The notes beneath the pieces were generated by a model. The model worked only from the letters and a program-made list of their open reading frames with translations, was not told the origin of the DNA and searched no databases. A DNA stretch of 64,000 nucleotides from Lentisphaeria bacterium UBA4640 (GTDB lineage Bacteria > Verrucomicrobiota > Lentisphaeria > Victivallales > UBA1829): assembly GCA_002405835.1 (NCBI GenBank), contig DHMO01000053.1, positions 50,273 through 114,272 of the forward strand, written 5' to 3'. The translations under genes were made by a program, and so were the position numbers. Shown here piece after piece: positions 6,986 to 54,899 of this stretch (its first letter is position 1; every line of letters begins with the position of its first letter).

Positions 6986-7504
6986 TTATGGAAGCAGGAC
7001 AATGCTTCCGGTGCGGCGGGTTGTGGGCATGTTGATCAGACGCTGGTTCGAAGACCCGCGGAATTTCAGGGAAATATCCTTCAGGCGTTCGATGAACGGA
7101 CCGTCGACCAGAACCGCAAGAGAATCCAGAATCTCATCAGTGACCTCGCAGTGTGCGCGTCCGCCGGGAACCAGATCGCAGTCATAGACATAACCGGAAT
7201 ACGCCCAGATATCCTTCTCCGGGAAACGTTTTTTGAATTCGCGGATCAGCGGCAGAAGAGCGCGCTGGTTGACCGGCTCAAACGGTTCGCCGCCGAGAAG
7301 CGACAAACCGTTGATGTAGTCGGGCTTGAGGAGACCGAGGATGTACTCCGCGGTCTCTTCCGTGAAGGGGTGCCCGGCGTTGAAATCCCATGTGGAGGCA
7401 TTGAAACAGCCCGGACAATGATGAGTACAGCCGGAGACGAACAGGGAGACGCGGACGCCTCTTCCGTTTGCGATATCCGTAGGTTTGATTGCACTGAAAT
7501 TCAT
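6986..7504 (-). CDS. nrdG: Anaerobic ribonucleoside-triphosphate reductase activating protein (radical SAM)
   Basis: N-terminal DIANGRGVRVSLFVSGCTHHCPGCFN carries a CX3CX2C cluster motif. The gene lies immediately downstream of nrdD on the same strand, and its size (172 aa) is typical. Confidence 0.9.
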   Translation of the reverse strand: MNFSAIKPTDIANGRGVRVSLFVSGCTHHCPGCFNASTWDFNAGHPFTEETAEYILGLLKPDYINGLSLLGGEPFEPVNQRALLPLIREFKKRFPEKDIWAYSGYVYDCDLVPGGRAHCEVTDEILDSLAVLVDGPFIERLKDISLKFRGSSNQRLINMPTTRRTGSIVLLP

Positions 7505-7522
7505 CAGACCCTCCGTTTTTTA

Positions 7523-9690: not shown

Positions 9691-9737
9691 CCCCTATATA
9701 TTGTGTACGTTTTTGTTTTTAGTACTACATCTTGGGG
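9691..9737 (-). promoter_or_regulatory. Candidate tandem NrdR boxes upstream of nrdD
   Basis: CCCCTATATATTGTGT (9691-9706) matches 14/16 of the NrdR box consensus acaCwAtATaTwGtgt, recalled from memory. A weaker second box, GTACTACATCTTGGGG (9722-9737, about 10/16), starts 31 bp away, which matches the known 31-32 bp tandem spacing. Confidence 0.45.
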
Positions 9738-9833
9738 AGTACTATATCATCCATTGGCCGAATTTCAAACGCGGAAGACGAAAAAAAAAGATTTTTTAAG
9801 AGCTTGAATCTGAATGCCGCGGCAACGGAAAAA

Positions 9834-10664
9834 TCAGTTGCCGAAACTGAGCAGTTTCTTCATGAAACCGGCCTTCCGCGGATGCGAAAGAACCGTCAGA
9901 AGAGTATCAACATCAAACTCCAACTGAAGCGTTTTCCCCGCTTTCAGCGGAAACTCCGAACCGGTAAAACGGAACGCTGCATCCTTTGCGGAAACGATCT
10001 CCAGTCCGCCGTGCAGATGCGGCGTTTTCGTCCGCGCATATTCCAGGAACGCAACACCCCAGGTACAGTCCGCGGGAACCGTCGGAGCAACGCTGTCGAC
10101 AATGAATTTCAGCGCCGGATCCGAGTTCTTCAGATTCAGCGGGGAAATCTTGCGGTTTGCCGGACCCGAAAGCGGATGTTTCCGGTTGATCAGCAGTTCG
10201 GAAATGCGGACGTGCTCTTCGCGAAGTCCGGCGCGCAGACTCAGCGTCAGAGGCACACCGCGCTTCAGCGGAACTGCAGGATGTTCCGGATCAAGCTCAA
10301 ACGAACCGTCCGCAGAGGGTACGAAGTCGAAACGGATATTGAACAGCCGTGTTCCATCCGGCATCAGCACCGGACGGAGAACCAGATCCCATGTATAAAG
10401 AGCATACGGCTTCACGCGGTTCTGCAACTCTGTTCCGATCACCTTCATGACAGACAGGTCCGTTTCGCTGAACTTCTGCGGTCTTGCGGAGTCGTCCTTG
10501 CGGAACCAGACACCGCGGTAATCCAGAGCAAACATGCACCACATGATCCCGATCACGACACCGATGAAAAACAGTCCGGCCAGATGCGGCGACGCATAGA
10601 ATATGTACGGAATCATCAGGATCAGGGACGCCTGACCAATCCGCCGGAATGTTGTACGGTTCAT
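9834..10664 (-). CDS. Hypothetical membrane-anchored protein (two N-terminal TM helices plus soluble domain)
   Basis: N-terminus QASLILMIPYIFYASPHLAGLFFIGVVIGIMWCMFAL is hydrophobic. An AAGGA Shine-Dalgarno sequence precedes the ATG. The opposite-strand 805-aa ORF is Arg-rich shadow. I recognise no family. Confidence 0.6.
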   Translation of the reverse strand: MNRTTFRRIGQASLILMIPYIFYASPHLAGLFFIGVVIGIMWCMFALDYRGVWFRKDDSARPQKFSETDLSVMKVIGTELQNRVKPYALYTWDLVLRPVLMPDGTRLFNIRFDFVPSADGSFELDPEHPAVPLKRGVPLTLSLRAGLREEHVRISELLINRKHPLSGPANRKISPLNLKNSDPALKFIVDSVAPTVPADCTWGVAFLEYARTKTPHLHGGLEIVSAKDAAFRFTGSEFPLKAGKTLQLEFDVDTLLTVLSHPRKAGFMKKLLSFGN

Positions 10665-10728
10665 GAAAAAATCCTTGTGTTAAATCTCTGTAAGATACTC
10701 CGTTTTTTCTCAGAATCAAGTCGTTGCA

Positions 10729-10765
10729 GAAAAAAATCTCTCCGGAAAATCTTTCCCGGAGAGAT
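10729..10765 (-). terminator. Rho-independent terminator downstream of the fucosidase gene
   Basis: On the minus strand there is a 10-bp perfect stem, ATCTCTCCGG/CCGGAGAGAT (10756-10765 / 10736-10745), with a 10-nt loop followed by a T run. It starts 10 nt after the stop codon. Confidence 0.65.
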
Positions 10766-10775
10766 TGAGCGTTTT

Positions 10776-12083
10776 TTATTTCAGGAAAAGTTCAATGACG
10801 GGGACTTCAACATTCGGCTTGATGACCGGAAGTTCAAGCGTAAGCGCATTTTCCGGCGTCTTGCTGTTGAGTGCGCCGTGGATTTCCACCTTCTGATCGC
10901 GGAAACGGATTTCGCTGCCGTCGCTCAGAAGCTGTGCGTATGCGACCTTGTCCGCAAGCCCGGGAAGGTGAATGTGCTTGAAGGGCCAGTTCATCAGATG
11001 CAGATAGAGACGGTTAGTCTCCTTGTTATATGTGTAACGGCAATCCTGAGGAGCCTTGATTCCGTCGGGCGCTGCGGCGCAGTTGTAGATCGCGCGGCTG
11101 TGCAGACGCATCCAGGCGGCATAGGCTTTCAGACAGTTCATCGCGCGGTCATCCAGATAGCCGCGGCTTGTGGGGCCGACATTCATCAGAAGGTTGCCGT
11201 TGCGGCTGACATGGTTGATGAGCATGTCGATGCACTGCTTCGGCGACTTCCAGGTCTGTTCATCGCGGAAGTATCCCCAGGAACCGGAGAAGGTCTGACA
11301 ACCCTCCCAGACAAGCGGATTTCCGTCCTTGTCTTTAAGCGGTTCATCCGGCGTGTACTGCTCCGGAGTCTGAATATCTCCTTCATCCGGAAGATCGAGC
11401 CGGTTGTCAAGGATGATGTCCGGCTGGAGCGAGCGGATCATCTTGACCAGCTCTTCGGATTTCCATTCGTTGCGTCCTTTGCCGTGTTCCGGATTTCCGT
11501 CCTCGGAGGGATAGGAGAAGTCGAACCAGAGAATGTCGATTTTTCCGTAGTCGGTGAGAAGCTCGCGGACCTGATTGCGCATGTATTCGGCATAACGTTC
11601 CATGCAGCGGCCTTCATTTCTTTTTTTGCGCTCTTCATCGCTGCTGTCACGGTAAGGTCCGAGCCGGTTGTCGAGGACGTAGTCCGGATGATGCCAGTCG
11701 AGAAGGGAGTAGTAGAAGCCGACGCGGATTCCCTCCGCACGGAAGGCGTCGACGACTTCGCGGAGCAAGTCGCGTCCGGCAGGGGTGTTGGTAACCTTGT
11801 AGTCGGTGTATTTCGTATCCCACATGCAGAAGCCTTCATGATGTTTTGTGGTGATGACGAAATATTTCATTCCGGCTTCACGCGCGGCTTTCGCCCACGC
11901 TTTCGGGTCGAAAAGATCAGGATCGAAACGCTCGAAATACTTCTGATAATCTTCGTCTTTGATCTTCTCGTTGTGGCGGATCCACTCGTGGCGCGCAGGC
12001 ATGGAGTAGAGTCCCCAGTGAATGAACATGCCGAATCTGTCTTTGACGAACCATTTGGTATCGCCGCTTCCGAATTTTCCCAT
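10776..12083 (-). CDS. Alpha-L-fucosidase, GH29 family
   Basis: N-terminal KWFVKDRFGMFIHWGLYSMPA plus HHEGFCMWDT, YYSLLDWHHPDY and DILWFDFS are hallmark GH29 blocks. Confidence 0.9.
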   Translation of the reverse strand: MGKFGSGDTKWFVKDRFGMFIHWGLYSMPARHEWIRHNEKIKDEDYQKYFERFDPDLFDPKAWAKAAREAGMKYFVITTKHHEGFCMWDTKYTDYKVTNTPAGRDLLREVVDAFRAEGIRVGFYYSLLDWHHPDYVLDNRLGPYRDSSDEERKKRNEGRCMERYAEYMRNQVRELLTDYGKIDILWFDFSYPSEDGNPEHGKGRNEWKSEELVKMIRSLQPDIILDNRLDLPDEGDIQTPEQYTPDEPLKDKDGNPLVWEGCQTFSGSWGYFRDEQTWKSPKQCIDMLINHVSRNGNLLMNVGPTSRGYLDDRAMNCLKAYAAWMRLHSRAIYNCAAAPDGIKAPQDCRYTYNKETNRLYLHLMNWPFKHIHLPGLADKVAYAQLLSDGSEIRFRDQKVEIHGALNSKTPENALTLELPVIKPNVEVPVIELFLK

Positions 12084-12217
12084 GATAAGTCTCCTTTTTT
12101 CAACGGGTTCTGTTGTTACGATACAAGACGATATGAAAAAATCAAGTGATTATTCTTTTAAAATAACGGAAATTTTATGAAGAAAATCACCTGTTTATGA
12201 AAAATAGCACTGCGGGC

Positions 12218-14591: not shown

Positions 14592-15386
14592 TCAAACCCG
14601 GGACGGCGGAACTCCGTAAACCGCACGGAAAACGCGGGAGAAGTAAAACGGGCTGGAAAAACCAAGCCGGTCCGCCGTCTCTTTCACACTCAATCCCTCC
14701 CCCGCCAGCAGGCGGTACGCACGCTGAGCCAGCCGTCTGCGGACATATTCCCCTGGAGTCATGCCAAGCTGTTTCCGGAAAAGCTGATTGATGTATTCCG
14801 GCGCAAAATGGAATTCCCGCGCCAGCGCCATCCGCCCCGGGCGTTCAAGCAGGTGTTCATTCAGATACGCCGTCATCCGCTTTACCGGATCCGCGCCGTT
14901 TCCCCTGACACTTTCGGGAAGAAGCATCCGCAGGAATATTTCGCGGACGAGTCCGGACGCCAGCGCTTCCGTAACGCTTCCCGGAGTCCGGAATGCTTCA
15001 TAAAGCCGCAGAAACAGTGAGTGAAACAGTTCCGGTTCCGCAAGACTGAGTCGGCGCGGCGGGAGCTGAACCGGTTCGCATTCCGCTGTTTCCCCGAAGA
15101 GAAAATGAACACAGCAGAACGAACTTTCCCGTTCCGTCAGAGTCTGTGAAATTTCGATTCCCGGCGGCATGAGGGCGATTTCTCCGGGAGCCAGTACAAA
15201 ATCTTCACCGTCTCCGGATTCATAGCGGATTCCGCCCGCAAGCGTCATCTGAATCTGCCAGTCGATGAATGTACGCTTCTTCCATGCTGTGCAGCGGTTC
15301 TCTTCCGGACGGATGACTGCGACGTAATGGACGACGGGCTGGAGTTCATTCAGGAGGATTTTTCTTTGATTCTTATTTTCGTGCAT
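14592..15386 (-). CDS. AraC-family transcriptional regulator
   Basis: Cupin-like N-terminal half and a C-terminal AraC HTH (LAREFHFAPEYINQLFRKQLGMTPGEYVRRRLAQRAYRLL..., LGFSSPFYFSRVFRAVYGVPPS). It is divergent from a glycosidase gene. Confidence 0.82.
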   Translation of the reverse strand: MHENKNQRKILLNELQPVVHYVAVIRPEENRCTAWKKRTFIDWQIQMTLAGGIRYESGDGEDFVLAPGEIALMPPGIEISQTLTERESSFCCVHFLFGETAECEPVQLPPRRLSLAEPELFHSLFLRLYEAFRTPGSVTEALASGLVREIFLRMLLPESVRGNGADPVKRMTAYLNEHLLERPGRMALAREFHFAPEYINQLFRKQLGMTPGEYVRRRLAQRAYRLLAGEGLSVKETADRLGFSSPFYFSRVFRAVYGVPPSRV

Positions 15387-15478
15387 ATTTTTCTCATTTC
15401 CGGCTATTCCATATTTCTTATTTCAATGTATAATATAGGAACAAAAAAAGAGAAATGCAAGCAGAATGGAGAAAAAAT

Positions 15479-17305
15479 ATGCTGTCATTTGAAAACGGAA
15501 CATTCCATATTCCGGAAACCGGACTCGGCGAAGGGATTCTGTCGTTTGAATTTGAAAATGAAACGATCACAACTGAATCCGCCGTTTGGATACCCTGTGG
15601 CAATTCATGGAAAACGGAATTGAAGAACGGGCTGCAGGTTCAGCTGCAAATCAGCGGAGACATTCTGCATGCTTCGTTCCGCAACGGGATGCAGGAATGT
15701 TTTCTGAAAAAGATTCATCTGGATTTTGCCGCAGGGCTTGACGCGGAAAATTACAGGGAATACACTCATTCGCGTCTTTTCCTCGAACAGGCAAGCGGAG
15801 TGAAGCCGGTTGGAATGTCGACTCCGTTTTTTGAACACAATCCGCCCAGTTACATGGTTTATCTTCTCGTTCCGCGCAACAGCGGAAAGAATTTGCTGTT
15901 CGCGGCGCTTCCGCCGCATCAGGGGGACTTCCTGGTCTTTCAGGCACGGCATGAATCCAGGAGTCTGAACGGGAAATTCGGTCTCTCCGTCACTGTGGAG
16001 GAAGACCGCAGTCTGAAAGCTGGAATGGAGTTCAAACTCTCGCCGGTTCTCTTCCGCGTCTCGGAGAAAAATCCGCTTGAACTGCTGGAGGAGCTCGGAG
16101 ATTCCTATGCGGCTTTGCGGACAGCGCCGCTGAAAGATCGCGCCGTCGGCTGGAATTCATGGGATCAGTTTCATACGGATATTTCCGCTGAAGATGTTCT
16201 CGAAACCCAGAAAAGACTCGATGCTTTTTCCGGGCACAAGGTCCGTTATTATGTCGTTGACGACGGCTGGCAGATAGCCTACGGCGCCTGGATCCCGAAC
16301 CTCAAGTTTCCCGCCGATCTTGCCGAGTTCTGCCGGAAGATAACTGCCGGCGGCGGAATTCCGGGAATCTGGACTGCTCCGCTCTGCGTGGACAACAGGT
16401 ACATGTTCCCGCACGAATGGATCGTTTCGACAACCGACGGACGTTTTGCTCTGGATATTACCCGTCCGGAAGCGGCGGAATACCTGCATTCCGTTTACCG
16501 CCGCCTGCATGATGCAGGATTCCGGTACTTCAAAGTCGATTTCACCAACCGCATTCTCGATGTTCCGCGCTGTCATGACATGAGCATGGGACGCGCCGGA
16601 ATTTTGCGCCGAACTTATGAAATCATCCGTTCGGCGATCGGACCGGAAAGCTACTTCCTCGGCTGCTGCGTCCCGTATGAACCTGCATTCGGGCTCGTCG
16701 ACGCAGTCCGGACCACAGCGGATATTCAAATCTACTGGAGCGCGGTACAGATCAATATGACAAGCGCATCCGCCCGCTGGTGGATGCATCGCAGACTCTG
16801 GAACAACGATTCCGATTTTCTTGTGGTGCGCGGCGAAGAGACTTCCTGTGCGGAGTTTTCGAATCAGTCGCCGTTTGTACCGGGGAAATATGCAAGCGGT
16901 CCGGTACTCACAAAACGGGAAGCGGAATCGCTCGCTCTGGCGCTCTACATGACCGGAGGCGATCTCATGTTCAGCGACAATTTTCTGAAACTGAATGACG
17001 CCGGACGGAAGATTTTGAAAGACACCCTTGCGCTGCCTCCGCTGAACGAGGCGGCGCGTCCGCTGGATCTGTTCTCTGCGCCTGCGGGTAAAATGCCGTC
17101 CGTCTGGTTTGCTCCAGAAGCCGGGAAAGCCGCGGTTTTCAACTGGGGGGAAGAGCCTGCGCAATTTGAACTTGGACCGGCTCTTTTCGGCGGACATCGT
17201 CCCGGAGACTTCTTCTGGAACCGGAAGGAAGCGGAACGAGACCCGGACGGTACTCTCCGAATTGTTCTTGCCCCGCATGAAGCGGCTGGAATTGAAATTC
17301 TTTAA
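15479..17305 (+). CDS. Alpha-galactosidase-like glycoside hydrolase (clan GH-D, GH36/GH27-like)
   Basis: YYVVDDGWQ, FRYFKVDF (KxD nucleophile-type block) and LWNNDSDFLVV (NDPDML-like block). The start is chosen at ATG 15479, with GGAG 7 nt upstream. An alternative ATG lies at 15455. Confidence 0.65.
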   Translation: MLSFENGTFHIPETGLGEGILSFEFENETITTESAVWIPCGNSWKTELKNGLQVQLQISGDILHASFRNGMQECFLKKIHLDFAAGLDAENYREYTHSRLFLEQASGVKPVGMSTPFFEHNPPSYMVYLLVPRNSGKNLLFAALPPHQGDFLVFQARHESRSLNGKFGLSVTVEEDRSLKAGMEFKLSPVLFRVSEKNPLELLEELGDSYAALRTAPLKDRAVGWNSWDQFHTDISAEDVLETQKRLDAFSGHKVRYYVVDDGWQIAYGAWIPNLKFPADLAEFCRKITAGGGIPGIWTAPLCVDNRYMFPHEWIVSTTDGRFALDITRPEAAEYLHSVYRRLHDAGFRYFKVDFTNRILDVPRCHDMSMGRAGILRRTYEIIRSAIGPESYFLGCCVPYEPAFGLVDAVRTTADIQIYWSAVQINMTSASARWWMHRRLWNNDSDFLVVRGEETSCAEFSNQSPFVPGKYASGPVLTKREAESLALALYMTGGDLMFSDNFLKLNDAGRKILKDTLALPPLNEAARPLDLFSAPAGKMPSVWFAPEAGKAAVFNWGEEPAQFELGPALFGGHRPGDFFWNRKEAERDPDGTLRIVLAPHEAAGIEIL

Positions 17306-17358: not shown

Positions 17359-17922
17359 TCAGCGTTCGGGCTGTGGATGAAACTGACGGTGCGGGTGCTT
17401 GCCGAAAGCCGGCTTGCCGCTGACAATGTCATTGAACTGCTTTTCAATGATTTCCGTCTTGCGGGCTTTTTCCTTTGCAAGCGCGGCGGAATGTTCCGCA
17501 ATCCGCTGTTCACGGGCGGCAACGGCGCTGTCAAAGCGGGCTCCGAGAATTGCAATAATTTCTTTTTTTGCAGCTTCGTCTTTGTTTTTGCGGTACTGAT
17601 CAAGGAGCATGTTGAACTTCTCCATCTCCGCACGGCGTTTGGCGATCTCGGTGCGGCGGAGTTCATCAATCTCCTGCATTTTCTTCATGATCTGCATACG
17701 GACTTCGGGACTGATGAGAGCATCGTCCATTTCCGGACCCGGACGGAAATGGACGTTCCGTTCATCCCCGCGGGAATCCGGACGCGGACAGCGCGGTTTT
17801 TCTTTTTTCATTTTCCGGACTTTGCACTCTTTTTTATCCGGACGCGGAGCCGGTTCCTGTGCGAAAGCGGTTGTGCAGACGGCGGCGGCGCAGACGGCGC
17901 AGATGATGCTGGAAAATCTCAT
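17359..17922 (-). CDS. Hypothetical secreted, highly charged helical protein
   Basis: Signal peptide MRFSSIICAVCAAAVCTTAFAQE. Lys/Arg/Glu-rich helical repeats and a His/Pro-rich tail (GKHPHRQFHPQPER). The family was not recognised, and its resemblance to Spy/CpxP/ZraP-type periplasmic proteins is only general. Confidence 0.55.
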   Translation of the reverse strand: MRFSSIICAVCAAAVCTTAFAQEPAPRPDKKECKVRKMKKEKPRCPRPDSRGDERNVHFRPGPEMDDALISPEVRMQIMKKMQEIDELRRTEIAKRRAEMEKFNMLLDQYRKNKDEAAKKEIIAILGARFDSAVAAREQRIAEHSAALAKEKARKTEIIEKQFNDIVSGKPAFGKHPHRQFHPQPER

Positions 17923-18089: not shown

Positions 18090-18644
18090 ATGCTGTGCGA
18101 CATCTGCAAAAAAAATCCGGCGACCATCCACATTCAGGAAATTGCCGGGAATGAAAAAAAGACTCTTCATCTCTGCCAGGAATGCGCTCAGAAAAAAGCG
18201 CAGGAAGATTCCTCGTTTCAGGCGCTCAATCTTGCGGAGGTGCTTTACAACATATCCAATCAGCTCAATCCGCAGGAGGTGCAGAAACCCGATACGGAAC
18301 ATTCCGGAATTTTCTGTTCCACTTGCGGCTGGGATTATGCGAGTTTCCGGAAGACCGGACGCCTCGGCTGTCCAGACTGCTACAATGCCTTCCGCGACAC
18401 GCTCAAGAGCGTTCTCGGCGCCATGCACCGCGGAACCACGCACACTGGCAAAACCCCGGGCGAATATCACGGTCCGGCACCGGAAAAAGGGGAAATCAAC
18501 TTTGCAGCCCTCCGGAAGGAGCTTGAAAAACTTCAGAACAGTCTCAACGCCGCCGTTGCCAGCGAAGAGTTTGAGCGCGCCGCAATTCTGCGCGACAAAA
18601 TCAACGAACTCAAGGAACAGCTCACCGGAGGAAACGGAAAATGA
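18090..18644 (+). CDS. mcsA: McsA-like activator of protein arginine kinase (zinc-finger plus UVR domain)
   Basis: Two CxxC pairs twice (CDICKK...CQEC; CSTCGW...CPDC) and a C-terminal UVR motif (EEFERAAILRDKINELK). It overlaps mcsB by 4 nt. Confidence 0.8.
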   Translation: MLCDICKKNPATIHIQEIAGNEKKTLHLCQECAQKKAQEDSSFQALNLAEVLYNISNQLNPQEVQKPDTEHSGIFCSTCGWDYASFRKTGRLGCPDCYNAFRDTLKSVLGAMHRGTTHTGKTPGEYHGPAPEKGEINFAALRKELEKLQNSLNAAVASEEFERAAILRDKINELKEQLTGGNGK

Positions 18645-19711
18645 AAGTCAAGCCCGAAGAACTGCTCCGCAATCCGCTCAGCTGGCTCGTCGACAGCGGA
18701 CCGGATGACGATATCGCAATCAGCACGCGGATCCGTCTGGCGCGCAATTTCAGTTCCACGCCCTTCCCGATTGCGGGCAATCAGGATGCGCTCAATCAGG
18801 TGAAAGAGCTTGCGGAAAAAGCAATCCTCGATTCCGAAGCGATCGCCGAGCCGATGGAGTTTGACCTGCCCGCACTCTCCGATGTGGAGAAGAACCTGCT
18901 GCTGGAACGCCGTCTCATCAGCCGCGACATGCTCACGCCGAATCCTGCGTCGGCACTGATTGCGGACCGCAATGAATCGCTGGCCGTCATGATCAATGAA
19001 GAAGATCATCTCCGGATGCAGGCGCTCAGCCCCGGATTCCAGCTTGAATCGGTCTGGAAAAGACTGAATCATTTTGATGATGTCCTTTCCAACCGCATTC
19101 CATATGCGTTTGACGCACGCCTCGGCTTTCTCACATCCTGCCCTTCCAATCTCGGAACGGGAATGCGGGCGTCGGTTATGCTGCATCTGCCGGGATTGGT
19201 CATGATGGAGCAGATGAACGCCGTGAAACAGGCGCTCGGCAAACTCGGACTTGCCGTCCGCGGATTCTACGGGGAAGGCTCCAACAACCGCGGAAATCTC
19301 TTCCAGATTTCCAACCAGAGCACGCTTGGGGAAAGTGAAGAACAGATTCTCGACCGTCTCTCTTCGATCGTCAAGCAGATCATCATTCATGAAAAGCAGG
19401 CGCGGCAGACTCTGCTGGACAAACGCCAGAGTTTTCTGCTGAATCAAGTCGGGCGTGCCTACGGAATTCTGCGGCACGGCTATATGATTTCCAGTGAAGA
19501 GGCTCTCAATTCGCTCTCCGAACTGCGGCTCGGCGTGGACATGAAGATGTTCTCATCCGTCGACATCCACACGGTCAATGAACTCTTCCTCAACGTCCAG
19601 CCCTCGCATCTTCAGATTGCGGAACACAAGGAACTTTCGCAGGAGGAGCGCGACACCGCGCGCGCAACCCTTATCCGCGAAACACTCAAAGCCAAGCGCG
19701 GACAGGTCTGA
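18641..19711 (+). CDS. mcsB: Protein arginine kinase (ATP:guanido phosphotransferase family)
   Basis: ISTRIRLARN, NEEDHLRMQ and SCPSNLGTGMRASVMLHLPGL are phosphagen-kinase catalytic-domain signatures. The size (356 aa) fits McsB. Confidence 0.9.
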   Translation: MKVKPEELLRNPLSWLVDSGPDDDIAISTRIRLARNFSSTPFPIAGNQDALNQVKELAEKAILDSEAIAEPMEFDLPALSDVEKNLLLERRLISRDMLTPNPASALIADRNESLAVMINEEDHLRMQALSPGFQLESVWKRLNHFDDVLSNRIPYAFDARLGFLTSCPSNLGTGMRASVMLHLPGLVMMEQMNAVKQALGKLGLAVRGFYGEGSNNRGNLFQISNQSTLGESEEQILDRLSSIVKQIIIHEKQARQTLLDKRQSFLLNQVGRAYGILRHGYMISSEEALNSLSELRLGVDMKMFSSVDIHTVNELFLNVQPSHLQIAEHKELSQEERDTARATLIRETLKAKRGQV

Positions 19712-19723
19712 GGCTGACCGCAG

Positions 19724-21631
19724 ATGATTGAAGCCTTCTACACCGCCGGACTTGCCCTGCTGGAATCCACATTCGTTTTTGTGGGACTCCTGATTCTGCA
19801 CGGACTGCGCCGGATCATCGGTTCCGCTCCGCTCTACATGTTCCTGGGCGTGCTCGTGGTGATGATGAACGTCGCCGGAGCGGCAGGACTCCGCATGATC
19901 ATCAGCGACGGCGGATTTGAACTCAGTGTTTCGACCTCGATTCTGCTGCTGCCGGTCATCGCCATTCTGCTGGTGATCTATATCGCGGACGGCACGCTCG
20001 CAGCACAGCGGCTTATCATCGCGGCGATGGCGACTTTCGGGATTTTCGCATATCTCAGCTGGATTACGCGGATGCAGACCGAATGGGGCGGCTTCACCAT
20101 GTCGCAGGGGCATCTGGCGGATTACCTTTCACGGCTGCTTGGAAACACAACCCGCAACATGGGCGCTTCGCTGGTGTCGCTGACTCTCGACCTGTTCCTC
20201 ATTCCGGTGATTTTCCAGAAGATGAAGAACTACGGCTGCCGGTTGACCGTCTGTGCAATCGGCGCGGTGCTGCTCGGACAGTTTGTTGACAGCGTCATCT
20301 TCGTCGGCGTGCTCTACTGGGGCGATCCGCAGAAGATGGCCATTCTGAATGCGGAATACATTCCGCGCGTTCTTCTGGCGCTTTGGATTTCCTTTCTTGC
20401 GGCAATCTATCTTTCCCGTTTCGACAAGGAGATTCCCGGAGATTCACGCAGAACTCTTGACATCGTTCTTGCATTTTTCGGAAGCTACGGCAAGGCGAAA
20501 CGCCTGGAACAGAATCTGCGGGAATCGGAACAGCGCTGCCGCACCATCATCCAGAACGCCTCCGACATGATCCTCGTCACCGATGCGGACGGCATCATCG
20601 TCGATGCCAACAAAGCCGCTCAGGAAATGCTTTCGGCAAAAACAATGTTCGATCTCATCGGCTGCAGTCTCGACAAATTTCTGCTGCGCGGCGATACGCT
20701 CTCGCATCTGATGAAGGGGGCGGAAAACGTCATGCGTCTCTCCCTCCCCGGCTCCGGACGCGAAGTGGAGCTTTCCATGAGCAGTATTGCCGTTGACGGC
20801 AACTCCGCCCTGGTGTTCATCGGACGCGACATCACCGAACGGGAGCGTCTGGAGAAGGAACGTGAACTTCTGCGCAGTGAAAATGAACACCGCCAGCGTC
20901 TCGAAGCGATCGGACGGCTTGCGGGGGGAATCGCACACGACTTCAACAATCTCATTCATGCGATTCACGGTCATCTCGACCTCATTTACATGGGCGAAGT
21001 GACCGAGGAGAGCGAACCGCATCTCAAAAAGATCGACGCCATTGCGGAACAGGCGGGCAAGCTCACAAGCCAGCTCCTCGGGTACGCGCGCAAAGGCAAA
21101 CGGCAGGTTCAGGCTCTGCCGCTGAAAAGCATCGTGGACGGAGCGTTCAACCTCTTCCAGCCCACCACTCAGACGGGAATCCGCAACGAACTGAATATCG
21201 ACTGCGGCGGAATCTCGGTTGAAGGCGACCGCACCCAGCTTCAGCAGGCAATCCTCAATCTGATGATCAATGCGCGCGACGCCATGGAAAATCTTCCGGA
21301 AAACAGCCGCATTCTCCGCATTCGCGCGGGGCTTTGCGATGCAATGGGCGTTATGCCGAATCCTCCGGCGGAAGTCAAATTCAAAGGTCCCTTCTGCTGC
21401 ATCCGCGTCGAAGACAGCGGCCCGGGCGTGGATGAGGCGATTGTCGGGAAAATTTTCGAACCTTTCTTCACAACCAAGCCGACCGGGAAAGGCACCGGAA
21501 TGGGGCTCTCCATGGCATACGGAGTCTCCCGCGAACACGGCGGCTGGATTCAATATGAACGTCTGAACCCGGGCGCGGCATTCACCATCATTCTGCCCGT
21601 TCTGCAAAACGAAAAGGAACATATCCAATGA
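19724..21631 (+). CDS. Sensor histidine kinase: polytopic VUT/DUF165-like membrane domain + PAS + HisKA + HATPase
   Basis: The first ~245 aa are multi-TM, with SLTLDLFLIPVIFQKMK and LLGQFVDSVIFVGVLYWG (YhhQ-like signatures by eye). A PAS-like region follows (IIQNASDMILVTDADGIIVDANKAAQEML). H-box IAHDFNNL, N-box NLMINARDAM, G-boxes DSGPGV and GKGTGMGLS are present. Confidence 0.85.
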   Translation: MIEAFYTAGLALLESTFVFVGLLILHGLRRIIGSAPLYMFLGVLVVMMNVAGAAGLRMIISDGGFELSVSTSILLLPVIAILLVIYIADGTLAAQRLIIAAMATFGIFAYLSWITRMQTEWGGFTMSQGHLADYLSRLLGNTTRNMGASLVSLTLDLFLIPVIFQKMKNYGCRLTVCAIGAVLLGQFVDSVIFVGVLYWGDPQKMAILNAEYIPRVLLALWISFLAAIYLSRFDKEIPGDSRRTLDIVLAFFGSYGKAKRLEQNLRESEQRCRTIIQNASDMILVTDADGIIVDANKAAQEMLSAKTMFDLIGCSLDKFLLRGDTLSHLMKGAENVMRLSLPGSGREVELSMSSIAVDGNSALVFIGRDITERERLEKERELLRSENEHRQRLEAIGRLAGGIAHDFNNLIHAIHGHLDLIYMGEVTEESEPHLKKIDAIAEQAGKLTSQLLGYARKGKRQVQALPLKSIVDGAFNLFQPTTQTGIRNELNIDCGGISVEGDRTQLQQAILNLMINARDAMENLPENSRILRIRAGLCDAMGVMPNPPAEVKFKGPFCCIRVEDSGPGVDEAIVGKIFEPFFTTKPTGKGTGMGLSMAYGVSREHGGWIQYERLNPGAAFTIILPVLQNEKEHIQ

Positions 21632-23070
21632 AACATCTGCTGTCTGCACTGCTGCTTGCCGGCACACTTCTTCTCTCCGCGGCGGAGACTCTGACCATAA
21701 TCGGAACCACCGATATTCACGGTCATATATTCTCTGCGCCGGACAAACCGAATCTTCTTAAACTCGTCCGCGCCGTTTCGGAGGAAGCGGAAAAAGCCGG
21801 ACGCTCCAACACATTGCTCATCGACTGCGGCGATCTGATTCAGGGAACCGCCGAAACTCAGCTCGACAACGGGAAAGCCGTTCTTGCACTCATGAATCTT
21901 GCAAAATACGATGTCTGGGTTCCCGGAAACCATGATTTTGAGCTTGGAATGAACACTCTTCTTGCCCGCGTCCGCGGTTTTCAGGGGACTTTTCTCTGCG
22001 GGAATCTTATCTACAGGAACGACCGACCCGCCGCGGCATGGAAGCTGTTCGAACGGGCCGGACTCAAAGTTGCCGTTATCGGCATCACCTCCGAACACAT
22101 CGCAAACTGGAACTGGCGGCCGGAGGAAACAGGAATCAAAATCGAAGAAACTTTTGACGCCCTTGACCGCGTCATGCCGGAAGTCATGCGCGCGAATCCG
22201 GAACTGATTCTGCTGGCAATTCATGCCGGACGCTTCCAGTCCAAACGCTTCTCCCCGAAGTGGTATCAGATGCTTGACCTGGCCAAGCGCTATCCGCAAA
22301 TCGACCTCATTCTCGGTGGGCATACCCATGAACCTGTCGCCGGTCTCCCGATGGCGAAAAGCTGGTTCATGCAGGGCGGCAAACACACGCAGGGCTACGC
22401 GAAAGCGGAGATCGGTTACGACAAGACAAAGAAAAAATGCCTTTCTCTGAAAACCAATTACATTGCGCTCAAACCGGATGCGCAGGAAGTCGAAACGCCG
22501 AAAGCTCTCCGCCGCGAACTTGCCGAATTGCGGGATAATCTCAATTCCACCGTCTGCCGAAAGGCTCCCGCACTGACCTGGAAACAGCCCTGGAGCCTCG
22601 CGCAGATGTTCAGCAAGGCTATTGCGGAGGAGACAAAAGCAAAAATCGTCTTTCACGGAGTTCTTTCGTGGGGCGACAAACACGCAGGACGCTATTCTCG
22701 CAAGGATGTTTTCGACCTCTGTCCGTTTGAGAACACCGTGGTTCTGATGGACCTCTCGCCTTCGGAATGCAAAGCCGTGCTGGAGGAACAGCTGATTGCG
22801 CGGAAATCAAAGAAAAAGAACGCCATGCCGCAATATTCTTTCGGTGTTTCTCTGAACGAAAAGGGCGAACTGGTCCTTGCGGACGGGCGGATCTGGAACA
22901 ATGAGTCCGAGCGGCTTCCGGTCGCGTTCAATTCATTCATAGCCTCAAGCGGCGGGATGCGCTTCCCCGTTCTCAAAAAAATTTCATCCCGTCCAGAGGT
23001 GAACGGACGGGATACCGGACTCAAAGTCCGCATGCTTCTGGAAAATTATCTGAGGAGGAACTTTCAATGA
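21628..23070 (+). CDS. Secreted metallophosphoesterase / 5'-nucleotidase (UshA-like)
   Basis: Signal peptide MKHLLSALLLAGTLLLSAA. Calcineurin-like motifs TDIHGH, DCGDLIQG, GNHDFE and GGHTHE, plus a C-terminal 5'-nucleotidase-like domain. The ATGA start overlaps the kinase stop. Confidence 0.85.
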   Translation: MKHLLSALLLAGTLLLSAAETLTIIGTTDIHGHIFSAPDKPNLLKLVRAVSEEAEKAGRSNTLLIDCGDLIQGTAETQLDNGKAVLALMNLAKYDVWVPGNHDFELGMNTLLARVRGFQGTFLCGNLIYRNDRPAAAWKLFERAGLKVAVIGITSEHIANWNWRPEETGIKIEETFDALDRVMPEVMRANPELILLAIHAGRFQSKRFSPKWYQMLDLAKRYPQIDLILGGHTHEPVAGLPMAKSWFMQGGKHTQGYAKAEIGYDKTKKKCLSLKTNYIALKPDAQEVETPKALRRELAELRDNLNSTVCRKAPALTWKQPWSLAQMFSKAIAEETKAKIVFHGVLSWGDKHAGRYSRKDVFDLCPFENTVVLMDLSPSECKAVLEEQLIARKSKKKNAMPQYSFGVSLNEKGELVLADGRIWNNESERLPVAFNSFIASSGGMRFPVLKKISSRPEVNGRDTGLKVRMLLENYLRRNFQ

Positions 23071-23483
23071 AACGCTTTCTGATTCCGCTGGCCGCAGTGT
23101 TTGCACTCGCACTGTTTGACGGATGCTCGCACAACCGTCTCTCGTTCGATCCGAAGCCGGAAGACATGCTGGTCGACAAAGAGAAATTTGCGCTTTTCGA
23201 CTATGTCCGCGGATTTGTACTGAGTTCGAAACGCCTGAAACTTTCACAGGAGGAACGGAAGACGATCCAGTCGACCGATCCGGAAATCCGGATTTTCTAC
23301 ACAGCACCGAAAGAGGGACGGATGCATATGTACTGGGATCTGCCGCGTGAGCGCCGGCTGATCGCATTCACGGAAGGACCGCTTCTGACCACCCGCAATC
23401 CCTCGAACTGGCGCATTTCGATTGTCACCGGCAAGCGCAACGCAAACGCGGGAATGCCGAAAGATTACGGAATGGAAAAGTGA
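23067..23483 (+). CDS. Hypothetical small secreted protein / possible lipoprotein
   Basis: Signal sequence MKRFLIPLAAVFALALFDGC, with a Cys that could be a non-canonical lipobox. ATGA overlap with the upstream gene. No recognised family. Confidence 0.6.
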   Translation: MKRFLIPLAAVFALALFDGCSHNRLSFDPKPEDMLVDKEKFALFDYVRGFVLSSKRLKLSQEERKTIQSTDPEIRIFYTAPKEGRMHMYWDLPRERRLIAFTEGPLLTTRNPSNWRISIVTGKRNANAGMPKDYGMEK

Positions 23484-24394
23484 TGCGGACACTTCTTCTG
23501 TTTCTGCTCTGTCTCTGCTGCACGGAACTTCCAGCCCGCGGATATGCCGCGTTCCGGATGGATCTGATGCAGGTTCCAGAGTCAACGGAGAAAAATCCGG
23601 AAACGGCAATCCGTCATTCAGAGACCCGTACAGCGCTGACAGTCTTTATGAACGTCCTTTCCGGAACGCGCGCGGAACTGAAACTCTATGACCGCGCTGG
23701 GGAAACACACTGCGGTTTTTCCATGAGCGCCACGCCGTCCGTGCTTGTTCCGCAGAAACGGGTCGGGATGGATTTTTCCGCCTTCTTCCGGATGCCGGGC
23801 AAAGATACGGACAGCGCGGTTGCAGTTTCCGCAAAACGCAATCTCCGGGTGCCGAAACCGGTTTCCTGCGGACTCTTCGCCATGCCCGGTGCGGGAGCGA
23901 TTGTGCCCCTGCTCCGGGCAGATACGCTGTTTCCGTTCTACGGGGCAACCGGAGATTTCAAAATTCTGGAATGCTGTCTGATCGAAGCGGAAACGGGAAA
24001 GCTGAGGACGTTTTTGGCGGAACGGAAGATTCCTTTGTCAGCACTCGAAGACCCGCTTCCTTCCGCCGCCGCGCTGGAAGCGCTTGCCGCATTTCCAGCC
24101 GCCCGAAATTATCAAGTTGAAGTGAACCGTCTGCGCGGGAAGCTGCAGAAAGACGCTCTCTCGATCACGGTCCGTCCGCTCACTGCGCCGGTGTTCCGTC
24201 TGACCGTTCAGGAAAACCGCGATGCAGGCGGAGTGACCGAAGAATTTTTCTATGAAGGCTATCTGCTTGTTTCCCGTGAATGGCTTATGGTTGCGCATCT
24301 GCGCTCGCCTCATGCCGGGAAAAAGCTGTTTTTTGAACAGAATGCCGCGGAATCGAAAGAAAAAATTCTGCTGATTCGCGCGAATTTACGATAA
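23483..24394 (+). CDS. Hypothetical secreted protein
   Basis: Hydrophobic N-terminus MRTLLLFLLCLCCTELPA. The ATG overlaps the upstream TGA (TGATG); an in-frame GTG lies at 23480. No recognised family. Confidence 0.55.
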   Translation: MRTLLLFLLCLCCTELPARGYAAFRMDLMQVPESTEKNPETAIRHSETRTALTVFMNVLSGTRAELKLYDRAGETHCGFSMSATPSVLVPQKRVGMDFSAFFRMPGKDTDSAVAVSAKRNLRVPKPVSCGLFAMPGAGAIVPLLRADTLFPFYGATGDFKILECCLIEAETGKLRTFLAERKIPLSALEDPLPSAAALEALAAFPAARNYQVEVNRLRGKLQKDALSITVRPLTAPVFRLTVQENRDAGGVTEEFFYEGYLLVSREWLMVAHLRSPHAGKKLFFEQNAAESKEKILLIRANLR

Positions 24395-27101: not shown

Positions 27102-28175
27102 ATGGCATATCTGAACCGTCTGCTGCTCAAAGGAAACGAAGCCGTCGTCTACGGAGCTCTGCTTGCCGGATGCGATGCTTTCTACGGCTATCCGATCACC
27201 CCTGCGAGCGAAGTCGCCCATTCCTCCGCAAAACTTTTTCCGATGCTCCACCGCACATTCCTTCAAGCGGAATCGGAAATCAGCGCAATCAATATGGTAA
27301 TCGGAGCAAGCGCCGCCGGCAAACGCGTCATGACAGGAAGCTCCGGACTCGGAATCAGCCTGAAACAGGAAGCGGTCAGCTATCTTGCCGCATTTGAACT
27401 GCCCGCGGTCATTGTCGACGTCATGCGCGGCGGTCCCGGTCTCGGCAACATCAGTCCCGAACAGAGCGACTACTTCCAGGTCGTCAAGGGCGGCGGACAC
27501 GGCGCATACCGCTGTCTTGTCTTTACCCCCGACTCCGTTCAGGAAATGTGCGACTGCGGTTACAACGCTTTCGCCATGTGTGAAAAATACCGTACCCCCG
27601 CCTACATTCTCGCCGACGGCGTGATCGGTCAGATGATGGAATCGGTAACCCTTCCCGAACCGACTGACTATGTGTTCGATCCGGAATGGGCGGTCAACAA
27701 GTACAACGACAAGGGCGAGGCGAATTACCTCACCACGATCTATCTGGAAAACGATGAACTGGAACGCCGGAACAATCTTCTTCAGGAGAAGTTCCGCCGG
27801 ATTCAGGAGAATGAACAGAGCGCAGAAGAGTACATGACCGATGACGCCGAACTTGTCTTCGTCGCCTACGGAATCTCCGCCCGAATCGCCCGCACCGCCG
27901 TTCACGAACTGCGGAATGAAGGATACAAAGTCGGACTTCTCCGTCCGAAGATGGTCTTCCCCTTCCCCGAACGCGCGCTGAACAAACTTGTGAATGCGGA
28001 AACCGTGAAAAACTTCCTCTGCGTCGAACTGAGCCCCGGCCAGATGATTGAAGACGTCAAGCTCTCAATCGAATGCCGCCGCCCCGTCCACCTCGCCTAC
28101 CGCATGGGCGGCAACATTCCGTCGGTTCGTGAAATCTGTGAAAAAGCCGTCGCGATTCTGAAAGGAGCGTGCTGA
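27102..28175 (+). CDS. 2-oxoacid:ferredoxin oxidoreductase alpha subunit
   Basis: LKGNEAVVYGALLAGCDAFYGYPITPASEV is the typical KorA/VorB N-terminus. The length is about 357 aa. Confidence 0.88.
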   Translation: MAYLNRLLLKGNEAVVYGALLAGCDAFYGYPITPASEVAHSSAKLFPMLHRTFLQAESEISAINMVIGASAAGKRVMTGSSGLGISLKQEAVSYLAAFELPAVIVDVMRGGPGLGNISPEQSDYFQVVKGGGHGAYRCLVFTPDSVQEMCDCGYNAFAMCEKYRTPAYILADGVIGQMMESVTLPEPTDYVFDPEWAVNKYNDKGEANYLTTIYLENDELERRNNLLQEKFRRIQENEQSAEEYMTDDAELVFVAYGISARIARTAVHELRNEGYKVGLLRPKMVFPFPERALNKLVNAETVKNFLCVELSPGQMIEDVKLSIECRRPVHLAYRMGGNIPSVREICEKAVAILKGAC

Positions 28176-28176
28176 A

Positions 28177-29652
28177 ATGAGTGAAGAGATTGTAAAATTC
28201 GGAAAATCCAAAGTCTTTTTCGACACCTTCACACGCCGTCCCGGTCCGATCAAGAAGAACATGCACTACTGCCCCGGCTGCGGACACGGCATTCTTCACA
28301 AGCTCATTGCGGAAGCCGTTGAGTATCATGACATCCAGAAGAAAACCGTTATTATCGCCCCCGTCGGCTGCGCGGTCTTCTCCTACTATTACTACAACTG
28401 CGGCGGAATTTCCGTTCCGCACGGACGCGTCCCCGCGGTCGGAACCGGACTTGTCCGTGCTCTGCCGGACAACTTCGTCATCTCCTACCAGGGCGACGGC
28501 GACCTCGCGGCAATCGGTCTGAACGAGTTTCTCCAGGCGGCGAACCGCGGAGAAAACATGGCTGTTTTCTTCGTGAACAATTCGACCTACGGAATGACCG
28601 GCGGACAGATGGCTCCCACCACGCTTCCCGGTCAGAAAACCGCCACAAGTCCCTGCGGCCGCCAAATCGAAACCGACGGTTATCCGCTGAAAGTCTGCGA
28701 AATGGTCAATGCACTTGCAGCTCCGGTCTACATCGAACGCGTCGCTTTGACTTCCACCGCGAAAATCATGCAGGCGCGGAAAGCGATCCGCAAAGCGGTC
28801 GGACTCCTGAAGGAGCGCAAGGGATTCTCGCTCGTCGAAATTCTCTCTCCCTGTCCGGTCAATTTGAAGATGGACGCCAAGACCATCAACCGTTTCATCG
28901 ACGAACAGATGAGCCGTTATTTCCCGCTCGGCTGTTTCCGCGACAACACGGAAACGGCGCAGCCGCACCGTTTTGAGCGTCCGGTTCATGATCCCGATCT
29001 GGTCCGCCAGGTTCTTTTCCCGCCGAAACTCAATATCGGCGTTGCGTCGGATTTCAAGAACCAGTCGAAAATTTTTGAACATGAGCGCCGCATCAAAATT
29101 GCAGGATTCGGCGGACAGGGCATCCTGAGTCTCGGCATCATGCTTGCGACGATGGGCAAACTGCGCAACTTCAATGTCACCTGGCTTCCCTCCTACGGAC
29201 CGGAACAGCGCGGAGGCTCCGCGAACTGTTCGGTGATTCTGAGCCGCAATCTTATCGGTTCGCCGGTGATTGATGACAGCTGCAATCTTCTGATTGCCAT
29301 GACACAGGTCGCACTTGACAAGTTCCTGCACGAGTTGAAACCGAACGGCGTGCTGATTTATGACAGCTCGACGATGAAGGTTCCGGAGCACATCGCGGAA
29401 TCGCATCCCGTTTTCGGCATCAAAGCGTTGGATATTGCACTTGAACTCGGCAGTCTGAAGTGTGCGAACTCGGTGATTCTCGGAGCCCTCTCCGCGATCC
29501 TCATCGACCGCTATCTCGAAGGCGCCGACAAGCTCGACTTCGACCGCGCTTTTGAAGAGGCGATCATCGACTGCTTCAACAACAAGCCGGATGTCATCAA
29601 ACTGAATCTCTGCGCATTCTATGAAGGCAAGAAAGCCGTCAAATTCAACTGA
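28177..29652 (+). CDS. 2-oxoacid:ferredoxin oxidoreductase beta subunit fused to a gamma-subunit domain
   Basis: The N-terminal half has YCPGCGHGILHKLI and the TPP-binding GDGD. The C-terminal ~190 aa (IKIAGFGGQGILSLGIMLA..., YGPEQRGGSANCSV...) matches the gamma subunit pattern. Confidence 0.85.
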   Translation: MSEEIVKFGKSKVFFDTFTRRPGPIKKNMHYCPGCGHGILHKLIAEAVEYHDIQKKTVIIAPVGCAVFSYYYYNCGGISVPHGRVPAVGTGLVRALPDNFVISYQGDGDLAAIGLNEFLQAANRGENMAVFFVNNSTYGMTGGQMAPTTLPGQKTATSPCGRQIETDGYPLKVCEMVNALAAPVYIERVALTSTAKIMQARKAIRKAVGLLKERKGFSLVEILSPCPVNLKMDAKTINRFIDEQMSRYFPLGCFRDNTETAQPHRFERPVHDPDLVRQVLFPPKLNIGVASDFKNQSKIFEHERRIKIAGFGGQGILSLGIMLATMGKLRNFNVTWLPSYGPEQRGGSANCSVILSRNLIGSPVIDDSCNLLIAMTQVALDKFLHELKPNGVLIYDSSTMKVPEHIAESHPVFGIKALDIALELGSLKCANSVILGALSAILIDRYLEGADKLDFDRAFEEAIIDCFNNKPDVIKLNLCAFYEGKKAVKFN

Positions 29653-49763: not shown

Positions 49764-50090
49764 TTATTTGCAGTTCGCGCACACGGCGGAACGGGCGGTT
49801 GATGCACCGATTCCGGCAATTTCTACAATTTTGTTCTTTGCCGTCATTCCGGAAACAACCGAAACTGCGGATTTCGGACAGCGGAAGAGCGAAGCGAAGA
49901 ATTCGCAGAGCGCGGCGTTTGCCTTGCCGTCGACGGGCGGCGCAGTCAGAGCGACTTTCAGAGCTCCATCGAAAAGCCCCATGATTTTTGAACGGGAAGA
50001 ACGCGGCTGCACCCGGCAGGTAATCCGGGTGTAGCCGTTGTAATCGGTGATAATCGAAGTCAATTCAGATTCGGAAAGCGGCATTTTCAC
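49764..50090 (-). CDS. DUF167 / YggU-family protein
   Basis: VQPRSSRSKIMG...ALKVALTAPPVDGKANAAL is the YggU signature. It overlaps the ftsH stop by 4 nt. Confidence 0.8.
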   Translation of the reverse strand: MKMPLSESELTSIITDYNGYTRITCRVQPRSSRSKIMGLFDGALKVALTAPPVDGKANAALCEFFASLFRCPKSAVSVVSGMTAKNKIVEIAGIGASTARSAVCANCK

Positions 50091-52072: not shown

Positions 52073-52175
52073 TGCGTTTTCTTTTTCCTTGTAGTTAAGA
52101 GCTGGAATTCCATAATAGCGCAGCGCCGGGAGAATCCCGGCGCGCGGTTTTCTATTCGGGAGAACAGTGTGTGTT

Positions 52176-52691: not shown

Positions 52692-52930
52692 GGCAACTCC
52701 TCATGGCTTGCAGAAATTTGATTTGCTGACACATCGGGGAACATAACGCGCATTTCCGCTCTTGTCAATAGCGAAAACGAAGAAATTTCAAAAAAAAACT
52801 GGATATTTTCTTCAATTTTTTCAGAAAAAGGACTGGAAAAATCGTAAGAGAGGATTATATTCATAAGTTCAGAAGTTTTTAAACGAACACAAGACGTGTC
52901 ACACAAATAAAAATATGAAAGGTGGATCAA

Positions 52931-54253: not shown

Positions 54254-54289
54254 GTCCGTTTTTAACAACAAACTGAAAGAGAGGATTGC

Positions 54290-54889: not shown

Positions 54890-54899
54890 GAGGTGCGCA

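Follow-up and report, generated by a model that had tools for sequence, protein, structure and literature searches.

Gene content of the locus

The stretch analysed here (the window) comprises 64,000 nucleotides of contig DHMO01000053.1 (positions 50,273 to 114,272, forward strand) of Lentisphaeria bacterium UBA4640 (assembly GCA_002405835.1), whose lineage is human-gut Lentisphaeria (Victivallales). Near its first third the window encodes a sensor histidine kinase whose membrane-embedded input domain is descended from the YhhQ/Vut_1 transporter fold, and this kinase stands third in a compact unit behind mcsA and mcsB, the latter encoding a protein-arginine kinase. The mcsA-mcsB-kinase unit is the most interesting lead at the locus; taken alone, the kinase is an ordinary representative of a sensor family already catalogued. 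The unit opens a co-directional string of six genes:

18090 to 18644, + strand: mcsA-like gene, 184 amino acids, encoding the activator of McsB; two CxxC...CxxC zinc fingers plus a UVR helix (Pfam UVR, E 4.9e-9)
18641 to 19711, + strand: mcsB, 356 amino acids, protein-arginine kinase (Pfam ATP-gua_Ptrans, E 1.5e-65)
19724 to 21631, + strand: VUPS-PAS-HisKA-HATPase orphan sensor histidine kinase, ATG start, 635 amino acids (Pfam domains)
21628 to 23070, + strand: 5'-nucleotidase-family phosphoesterase, 480 amino acids, with a signal peptide (Pfam Metallophos and 5_nucleotid_C)
23067 to 23483, + strand: open reading frame (ORF) of 138 amino acids with a lipoprotein-like N-terminus (signal/lipobox-like), no Pfam match, ATGA overlap
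23480 to 24394, + strand: ORF of 304 amino acids with a signal-peptide-like N-terminus, no Pfam match, last of the packed string

Four of the five junctions in this string overlap (three as ATGA, one as GTGA). The mcsA stop overlaps the mcsB start as ATGA, as does the kinase stop with the 5'-nucleotidase start (ATGA at 21628), an overlap already pointed out in an earlier, sequence-only reading of this DNA. The end of mcsB is separated from the kinase start by a 12-nt gap.

Kinase architecture

The kinase ORF is as the sequence-only reading described it, and every motif quoted there is found in the translation (IAHDFNNL at residues 403-410, NLMINARDAM at 512-521, DSGPGV at 564-569 and GKGTGMGLS at 588-596). 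The polytopic membrane N-terminus that it proposed corresponds to approximately 235 residues predicted by AlphaFold as seven long helices, and the fusion of this region to a PAS-like region and a full HisKA/HATPase core is confirmed by Pfam matches in the order VUPS (residues 21-230), PAS_4 (278-375), HisKA (397-457) and HATPase_c (501-626), the HisKA and HATPase_c matches both exceeding their Pfam cut-offs. The parts of the protein are encoded as follows:

19727 to 20428, + strand: sensor domain, residues 2-235 (PF20973, E 1.8e-13; PF02592, E 4.9e-9; AlphaFold models)
20453 to 20557, + strand: juxtamembrane helix, residues 244-278, predicted as one continuous helix and carrying the clade signature LDIxxAFFGxYGK
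20558 to 20830, + strand: PAS core, residues 279-369, closing with the RDITER (DIT) junction motif (PAS_4, E 1.5e-8)
20831 to 21091, + strand: signalling helix and DHp (HisKA), residues 370-456 (HisKA, E 9.5e-7; predicted helices 371-423 and 431-456)
20936 to 20938, + strand: codon of the phospho-acceptor His405 (20927 to 20953 translates to GIAHDFNNL)
21110 to 21601, + strand: catalytic ATP-binding domain, residues 463-626, with N, G1, F and G2 boxes (HATPase_c, E 2.6e-17)

Full-length orthologues (n = 117) share 40-97% identity with the kinase. Across 33 orthologues (40-82% identity), H405-D-F-N-N, N512/N516, D564-G566-G568, F581-F582 and G588-G590-G592-G594 are invariant. The protein carries the His, N, G1, F and G2 boxes of a class I (HisKA) histidine kinase, and with all of these invariant its core is intact. 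Mean column identity, computed over the same 33 orthologues, was distributed along the protein as follows:

VUPS domain: 0.58
Juxtamembrane helix, residues 244-278: 0.69
PAS core: 0.42, the lowest of all regions
Signalling helix and DHp: 0.73
Catalytic domain: 0.56

The VUPS domain is about as conserved as the catalytic domain and more conserved than the PAS core, which argues that it is not a mere membrane anchor. In the juxtamembrane region, 16 of 43 columns show at least 90% identity, and D369 and T371 of the DIT motif at the end of the PAS domain are invariant in orthologues.

Relationship of the sensor domain to YhhQ transporters

The sequence-only reading had likened the N-terminal domain to YhhQ by eye, citing signature motifs that prove correct against E. 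coli K-12 yhhQ, the YhhQ reference sequence used here. Profile comparison upholds the likeness. The sensor region matches PF02592 (Vut_1) significantly, at 37.2-41.1 bits against a cut-off of 27.2 and over model positions 22-146 of 152 (E. coli YhhQ itself scores 125 bits), so that the proposed VUT relationship does have a family match behind it. A profile of 19 sensor domains aligned by hhalign with YhhQ residues 65-211 gave a probability of 90% and E 1.7e-6, and both hhalign and the hidden Markov model (HMM) alignment reproduce the three kinase/YhhQ helix pairings of the sequence-only reading. In the HMM alignment, D156 of the kinase is paired with D126 of YhhQ, D189 with D154, Q95/R96 with R69/R70, F164-Q165..N169 with F130-N131..Q135, and W199..P202 with W164..P167. 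These matches lie far beyond chance and indicate that the kinase sensor is a true homologue of the VUT/YhhQ (PF02592) family.

The kinase is nevertheless no stand-alone six-helix permease. AlphaFold predicts seven long helices and a short beta-hairpin (57-68) in residues 1-235, followed by a 400-residue kinase (mean predicted local distance difference test score 80.0 for the sensor domain alone and 77.5 for the full-length protein), whereas YhhQ, which stands alone, is described as having six transmembrane segments (PMC5372724). The sensor is thus a seven-helix domain descended from the YhhQ/Vut_1 transporter fold with one extra N-terminal helix. This helix would place the kinase N-terminus outside and its C-terminus inside, a topology consistent with the K/R-rich loops 28-34 and 166-173 and with a cytoplasmic kinase. 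A sequence search of the PDB found no structure matching the sensor. Against TIGR00697, the queuosine-precursor-transporter equivalog, the kinase scores 19.6 bits, below the cut-off of 50.95. By this score, the differing helix count and architecture and the lack of queuosine context (see below), the kinase, although homologous to the YhhQ queuosine-precursor transporters, lies outside that group.

A named and widespread sensor family

In Pfam, the sensor region is matched best by PF20973, 'VUPS - Vitamin uptake-like sensor', which scores 51.0 bits with the full protein and 53.6 bits with residues 1-260 alone (cut-off 27; model positions 3-206 of 206). YhhQ gave no match to the VUPS model, which means that Pfam keeps the sensor lineage and the transporters apart, and the kinase has the VUPS layout of an N-terminal membrane domain followed by cytoplasmic signalling domains. 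A profile search of 1.84 billion representative proteins returned 571 clusters at E ≤ 0.001, 183 at ≤ 1e-10 and 53 at ≤ 1e-30. The top matches (approximately 55) are orthologues of about 640 amino acids, while the remaining tail spans 340-1400 amino acids with the sensor domain always N-terminal. We took as distant relatives the 68 tail proteins of at least 300 amino acids among the matches listed, and VUPS was matched in 66 of these (best E 1e-65). Their outputs include HATPase_c (45 proteins), HisKA (37), GGDEF (8), adenylate/guanylate cyclase (3) and receiver (4) domains, usually with PAS or GAF domains between VUPS and the output, and one of the proteins comes from a Blastocatellia bacterium. 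The genome search for this architecture that the sequence-only reading had proposed therefore finds VUPS on histidine kinase, GGDEF and cyclase outputs alike. By these domain matches VUPS is a generic, catalogued input module of signalling proteins, and the kinase is an orphan VUPS-family sensor kinase with an architecture already catalogued in Pfam.

The sequence-only reading had been aware of no described VUT-kinase. This does not hold for the family as such, which is named, but it stands for experiment, as no experimental characterisation of any VUPS member was found in the literature searched. Searches for VUPS, PF20973, vitamin uptake-like sensor and Vut_1 with sensor returned no relevant paper, the YhhQ literature (including PMC5372724) does not mention kinase fusions, and in the Orientia papers Vut1 figures solely as a transporter that stands alone. 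As far as can be seen, VUPS is therefore a named family that is apparently uncharacterised experimentally.

Polar and charged residues within the membrane domain are among its best-conserved positions: E14, H26, D89-G90-T91, Q95-R96, D156, Q165, N169 and D189 are invariant or nearly so in the orthologues. D156 is kept in 58 and D189 in 60 of the 68 distant VUPS proteins, and both are also present in YhhQ. The sensor thus keeps the conserved intramembrane polar residues of the transporter fold (D156, D189, Q95/R96 and F164-Q165..N169), which we read as a putative transporter-type binding site that has been retained, and the PAS domain would then serve mainly to transmit the signal. A different reading is that the seven-helix domain has no soluble ligand and instead reports heat, lipid or envelope perturbation. 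Its co-location with mcsAB, a stress and protein-quality-control system, is conserved, and the periplasmic loops are short and form the least conserved parts of the domain, as such a membrane-state sensor might have them. However, the buried charged residues D156, D189 and E14/H26 (helix 1) are conserved VUPS-wide, even where mcsAB is absent, a pattern more typical of a ligand or ion site, and we consider a pure membrane-state sensor possible but somewhat unlikely.

If the transporter-type site is retained, the domain might also still transport. In such a transceptor, which the sequence-only reading had proposed as a candidate, a YhhQ-type substrate such as preQ0, preQ1, queuine or some other vitamin-like molecule would pass through the VUPS domain, and its flux or occupancy would be reported by the kinase. 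Transporter-kinase fusions of this kind have a precedent in what is reportedly an Amt-kinase of Kuenenia, the Asp/Arg/Asn-Gln constellation of the transporter family is retained, and the Vut_1 score is above cut-off. Set against these are the low TIGR00697 score, the separation of YhhQ from the VUPS model, which marks the sensor lineage as distinct, and the VUPS-specific invariant positions G33, Y86 and Y229, which like the extra N-terminal helix are absent from YhhQ. Nor does the locus offer a queuosine context. Across both strands of the 64-kb window no Rfam family attained its gathering score, no riboswitch-like match was found upstream at E ≤ 1 (only chance-level matches occurred), and Pfam scans found no queuosine gene among the window ORFs scanned. 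Control by a preQ1 or other riboswitch was rejected on the Rfam result, and a true transceptor seems quite unlikely.

Linkage to mcsA and mcsB

The mcsA-like product matches B. subtilis McsA (8wtb_B) over its full length (E 1e-24) with both zinc-finger pairs kept, and McsB, in which the NEEDH and CPSNLGTGMRAS motifs are preserved, matches Geobacillus McsB (6fh1_A) at 292 bits over residues 14-351. The McsB_C domain was found in McsB of related loci, so the module has the phosphagen-kinase-like catalytic domain, McsB_C and two zinc fingers expected of McsA/McsB. As motif-complete, full-length homologues, the McsA and McsB of the window look functional.

All five metagenomic relatives compared (82, 50, 48, 43 and 40% identity) keep mcsA-mcsB-kinase, while every other flanking gene differs among them, except for the 5'-nucleotidase gene in the 82% relative. 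A species scan with one genome per species yielded 62 loci, one per assembly, nearly all labelled Lentisphaeria, Victivallales or Victivallis; the nearest genomes were UMGS1153 and UMGS1182, with 98% identity in the sensor domain. In 33 of the 62 loci the kinase is immediately preceded by mcsB and mcsA on its own strand, with gaps of 16-135 nt. All-against-all clustering of neighbouring ORFs in these loci recovered McsB in 33 and McsA in 32, and found no other widely recurring neighbours. By neighbour joining, the linked kinases group into large coherent clades, within which a few losses are nested. The mcsA-mcsB-kinase arrangement is thus a recurrent compact three-gene unit in Lentisphaeria/Victivallales in which the kinase is third, and it was not found in the searchable literature.

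Loci without mcsAB in the Victivallis lineage have a second, lineage-specific context. A HAD-family hydrolase gene precedes the kinase in L052 (4418-5972), L055 (4507-5974), L071 (4520-6001) and L068 (5396-5956), and L052, L055 and L071 also have an SBF (bile-acid/sodium symporter-like) membrane protein gene before the kinase. The upstream ORFs of 357-364 and 185-214 amino acids in this unlinked clade were considered as divergent McsB and McsA and rejected, as Pfam identifies an SBF-type symporter and a HAD hydrolase.

On the other side of mcsA in the window lies a divergent ORF of 187 amino acids (17359 to 17922, - strand) with a signal-peptide-like start, a Lys/Glu-rich body and no Pfam match, which is not conserved beside mcsA in other lineages. 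The window also holds a protein-quality-control cluster at 50087-56189, 30 kb from mcsAB, comprising ftsH, a gene for an FHA-domain protein, the trigger factor gene tig, clpP and clpX; clpC and ctsR were not found in the window.

Downstream genes

In contrast to mcsA and mcsB, the genes downstream of the kinase are narrowly distributed. Only in the 10 closest of the 62 loci (L010-L018 and L024; at least 73% sensor identity) is the kinase followed by the 5'-nucleotidase gene and both unknown ORFs, and among the five metagenomic relatives the 5'-nucleotidase gene is kept only in the 82% relative (L001). Relatives at ≤ 50% sensor identity have recX, ogt, EPSP synthase and other genes downstream, and no 5'-nucleotidase. 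The 5'-nucleotidase and the two exported unknowns therefore appear to be a recent, lineage-specific addition to the transcription unit, and the old, recurrent neighbour of the kinase is the McsA/McsB pair.

The overlapping 5'-nucleotidase gene had led the sequence-only reading to suggest a nucleobase or nucleoside-like ligand, and the kinase might sense the product of this exported enzyme, the more so as YhhQ substrates are nucleobase-like (PMC5372724). Yet the enzyme is confined to the 10 closest species-level loci and L001 and is absent at ≤ 50% sensor identity, which makes this the weakest of the alternatives considered. The missing preQ1 riboswitch and queuosine genes and the low TIGR00697 score speak against the same hint, and nucleoside or nucleotide sensing is very improbable.

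Receiver and promoter searches

The receiver domains of CheY, PhoB, Spo0F and NtrC were used as queries with phmmer or tblastn. The 64-kb window yielded no receiver domain (phmmer with the four queries against 489 six-frame ORFs; Pfam scans of approximately 50 ORFs), and none was found within 6 kb of the kinase in the 62 loci or among the called genes of L001-L008. The observation in the sequence-only reading that no response regulator is encoded nearby therefore extends across some 70 loci, and the locus lacks the adjacent receiver gene of a classical two-component system.

One way to read this absence is direct cross-talk between the histidine kinase and the arginine kinase, in which no classical response regulator takes part and the sensor kinase either controls McsA/McsB or is itself controlled or marked by them. 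In favour of this, the three genes stay together as the flanks on both sides change, no response regulator lies near the kinase in any of these loci, and according to a review of 2025 arginine phosphorylation has no classical sensing role identified so far (PMC12189002). However, all of the support comes from genome comparison, orphans without mcsAB also occur among other VUPS kinases, so that orphan status is no pointer to McsAB, and the linkage is lost in many lineages. The DHp/CA core is moreover an ordinary one, as expected for phosphotransfer to a receiver, and such cross-talk is decidedly unlikely.

Ordinary -35/-10-like hexamers are visible by eye upstream of mcsA. In 32 upstream regions, neither a CtsR box nor CIRCE was found, and there were two weak sigma-54-like matches, both in close relatives; stress or sigma-54 control upstream of mcsA was accordingly rejected as a candidate.

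Proposed function

We consider the protein to be probably an orphan class I VUPS kinase with a transporter-derived input that works alongside McsAB in one stress or proteostasis process. In the mechanism that we propose, a small polar ligand would bind the transporter-derived pocket at the Asp/Asp/Arg site of the VUPS domain; the alternative input, that the domain reads membrane or envelope state, is ranked as less likely. Binding would move the last membrane helix of the sensor, and the juxtamembrane helix, the PAS domain and the DIT junction would relay the change to the DHp domain. Autophosphorylation of His405 would change as a result, and the phosphoryl group would pass to a response regulator encoded elsewhere. 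The kinase would be co-expressed with McsA and McsB and serve the same stress or proteostasis process, as suggested by its position as the recurrent third gene of the compact mcsA-mcsB-kinase unit.

Several observations weigh against this interpretation. In 24 loci whose upstream sequence extends to 2.3 kb or more, mcsAB is absent from it, and a further five with < 1 kb upstream gave no mcsAB match, so the linkage is not obligatory and could partly reflect inherited gene order within one class. Three VUPS kinases outside the clade have neither mcsAB nor an adjacent regulator, and the CtsR box and CIRCE are missing from the regions upstream of mcsA. The putative pocket is deduced from conserved residues, and Foldseek with the sensor model returned nothing at E ≤ 0.001. 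The tblastn and phmmer searches for receivers may miss very divergent ones.

A stronger proposal would make the unit a three-component system, in which the sensor kinase gives arginine phosphorylation by McsA/McsB an environmental or metabolite input, or is itself controlled by McsA/McsB. We regard this as unlikely. If true, protein arginine phosphorylation would for the first time be seen to be under sensory control, in a Gram-negative lineage of the Planctomycetes-Verrucomicrobia-Chlamydiae (PVC) group and through a transporter-derived sensor domain. The mcsA-mcsB-kinase unit is the part that was not found described, and it would be notable if it formed a functional system, but the support for this is purely genomic and the linkage is not universal. 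Should the link prove to be co-expression only, the finding reduces to routine annotation. The analysis confirms the YhhQ/Vut_1 transporter fold as a widespread signalling input, pinpoints an Asp-Asp-Arg constellation that is directly mutable, and corrects the contextual clue, since the conserved neighbour is the McsA/McsB pair, which the sequence-only reading had missed. The operon of mcsAB and the sensor kinase in cultivable gut relatives such as Victivallis offers an entry point to a possible sensory input of arginine phosphorylation and to the role of McsAB in PVC bacteria.

Other features of the window

The window is rich in glycoside hydrolases, which fits a polysaccharide-degrading gut member of the Victivallales. 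They comprise a GH2-like protein of 1612 amino acids (1374-6212), an alpha-L-fucosidase (10776-12083), a weak melibiase-like protein (15455-17305) and a GH36 alpha-galactosidase (60744-62861), and genes for AraC-type regulators adjoin those for the melibiase-like protein (14592-15386) and the GH36 enzyme (59754-60644). An ORF of 805 amino acids (9732-12149, + strand) without a family match overlaps the fucosidase gene on the opposite strand (10776-12083, - strand; E 1.8e-92) and is probably a shadow ORF, at least over the fucosidase stretch. Markers of anaerobic life are also present (6986-9685, 27102-29652 and 44326-45579), namely the anaerobic ribonucleotide reductase NrdD and the activase that goes with it, a pyruvate/2-oxoacid:ferredoxin oxidoreductase pair and HydF, a maturase of [FeFe]-hydrogenase.

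Comparison with known systems

E. coli YhhQ, or QPTR (COG1738, PF02592), a preQ0/preQ1 transporter, shares a homologous membrane fold with the kinase sensor, but the kinase has a seventh, N-terminal helix and a signalling fusion and stands outside any queuosine or riboswitch context. The recruitment of a permease-type membrane domain as the input of a histidine kinase is likewise seen in other proteins. For example, CbrA carries an SLC5-like domain on its kinase, LytS has a 5TMR-LYT domain, and Ks-Amt5 of Kuenenia is said to be an Amt-kinase, a transporter domain fused to a kinase. Their membrane folds are unrelated to that of the VUPS kinase, and for these proteins ligands or partners are known. 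At the level of fold, the best matches of the sensor model were S-components of energy-coupling factor (ECF) transporters (CbiM, NikM, PanT and RibU; E 0.086-2.4; TM-score approximately 0.26-0.52; Foldseek probability 0.75-0.97 for CbiM, NikM and PanT and 0.18 for RibU). These are small-molecule-binding helical membrane bundles with a weak fold-level likeness only, and no sequence similarity to the kinase sensor was found.

In Firmicutes, McsAB is a heat and proteotoxic-stress system, as described in PMC11046695 and PMC10128030. Compared with the Firmicute ctsR-mcsA-mcsB-clpC operon, the window has a membrane sensor kinase in place of clpC after mcsAB, and it differs from the class III heat-shock operon in that an unrelated, divergent ORF of 187 amino acids, and no CtsR box, lies upstream. 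Chlamydia, also of the PVC lineage, has a stand-alone mcsAB operon apart from clpC, and the function of McsAB in PVC bacteria is open (PMC10128030); the separation of mcsAB from clpC is shared with the window. Within the VUPS family, the Lentisphaeria clade forms a divergent branch (51 bits, versus E down to 1e-65 elsewhere) with its own juxtamembrane signature, and it is the only VUPS branch seen linked to mcsA-mcsB.

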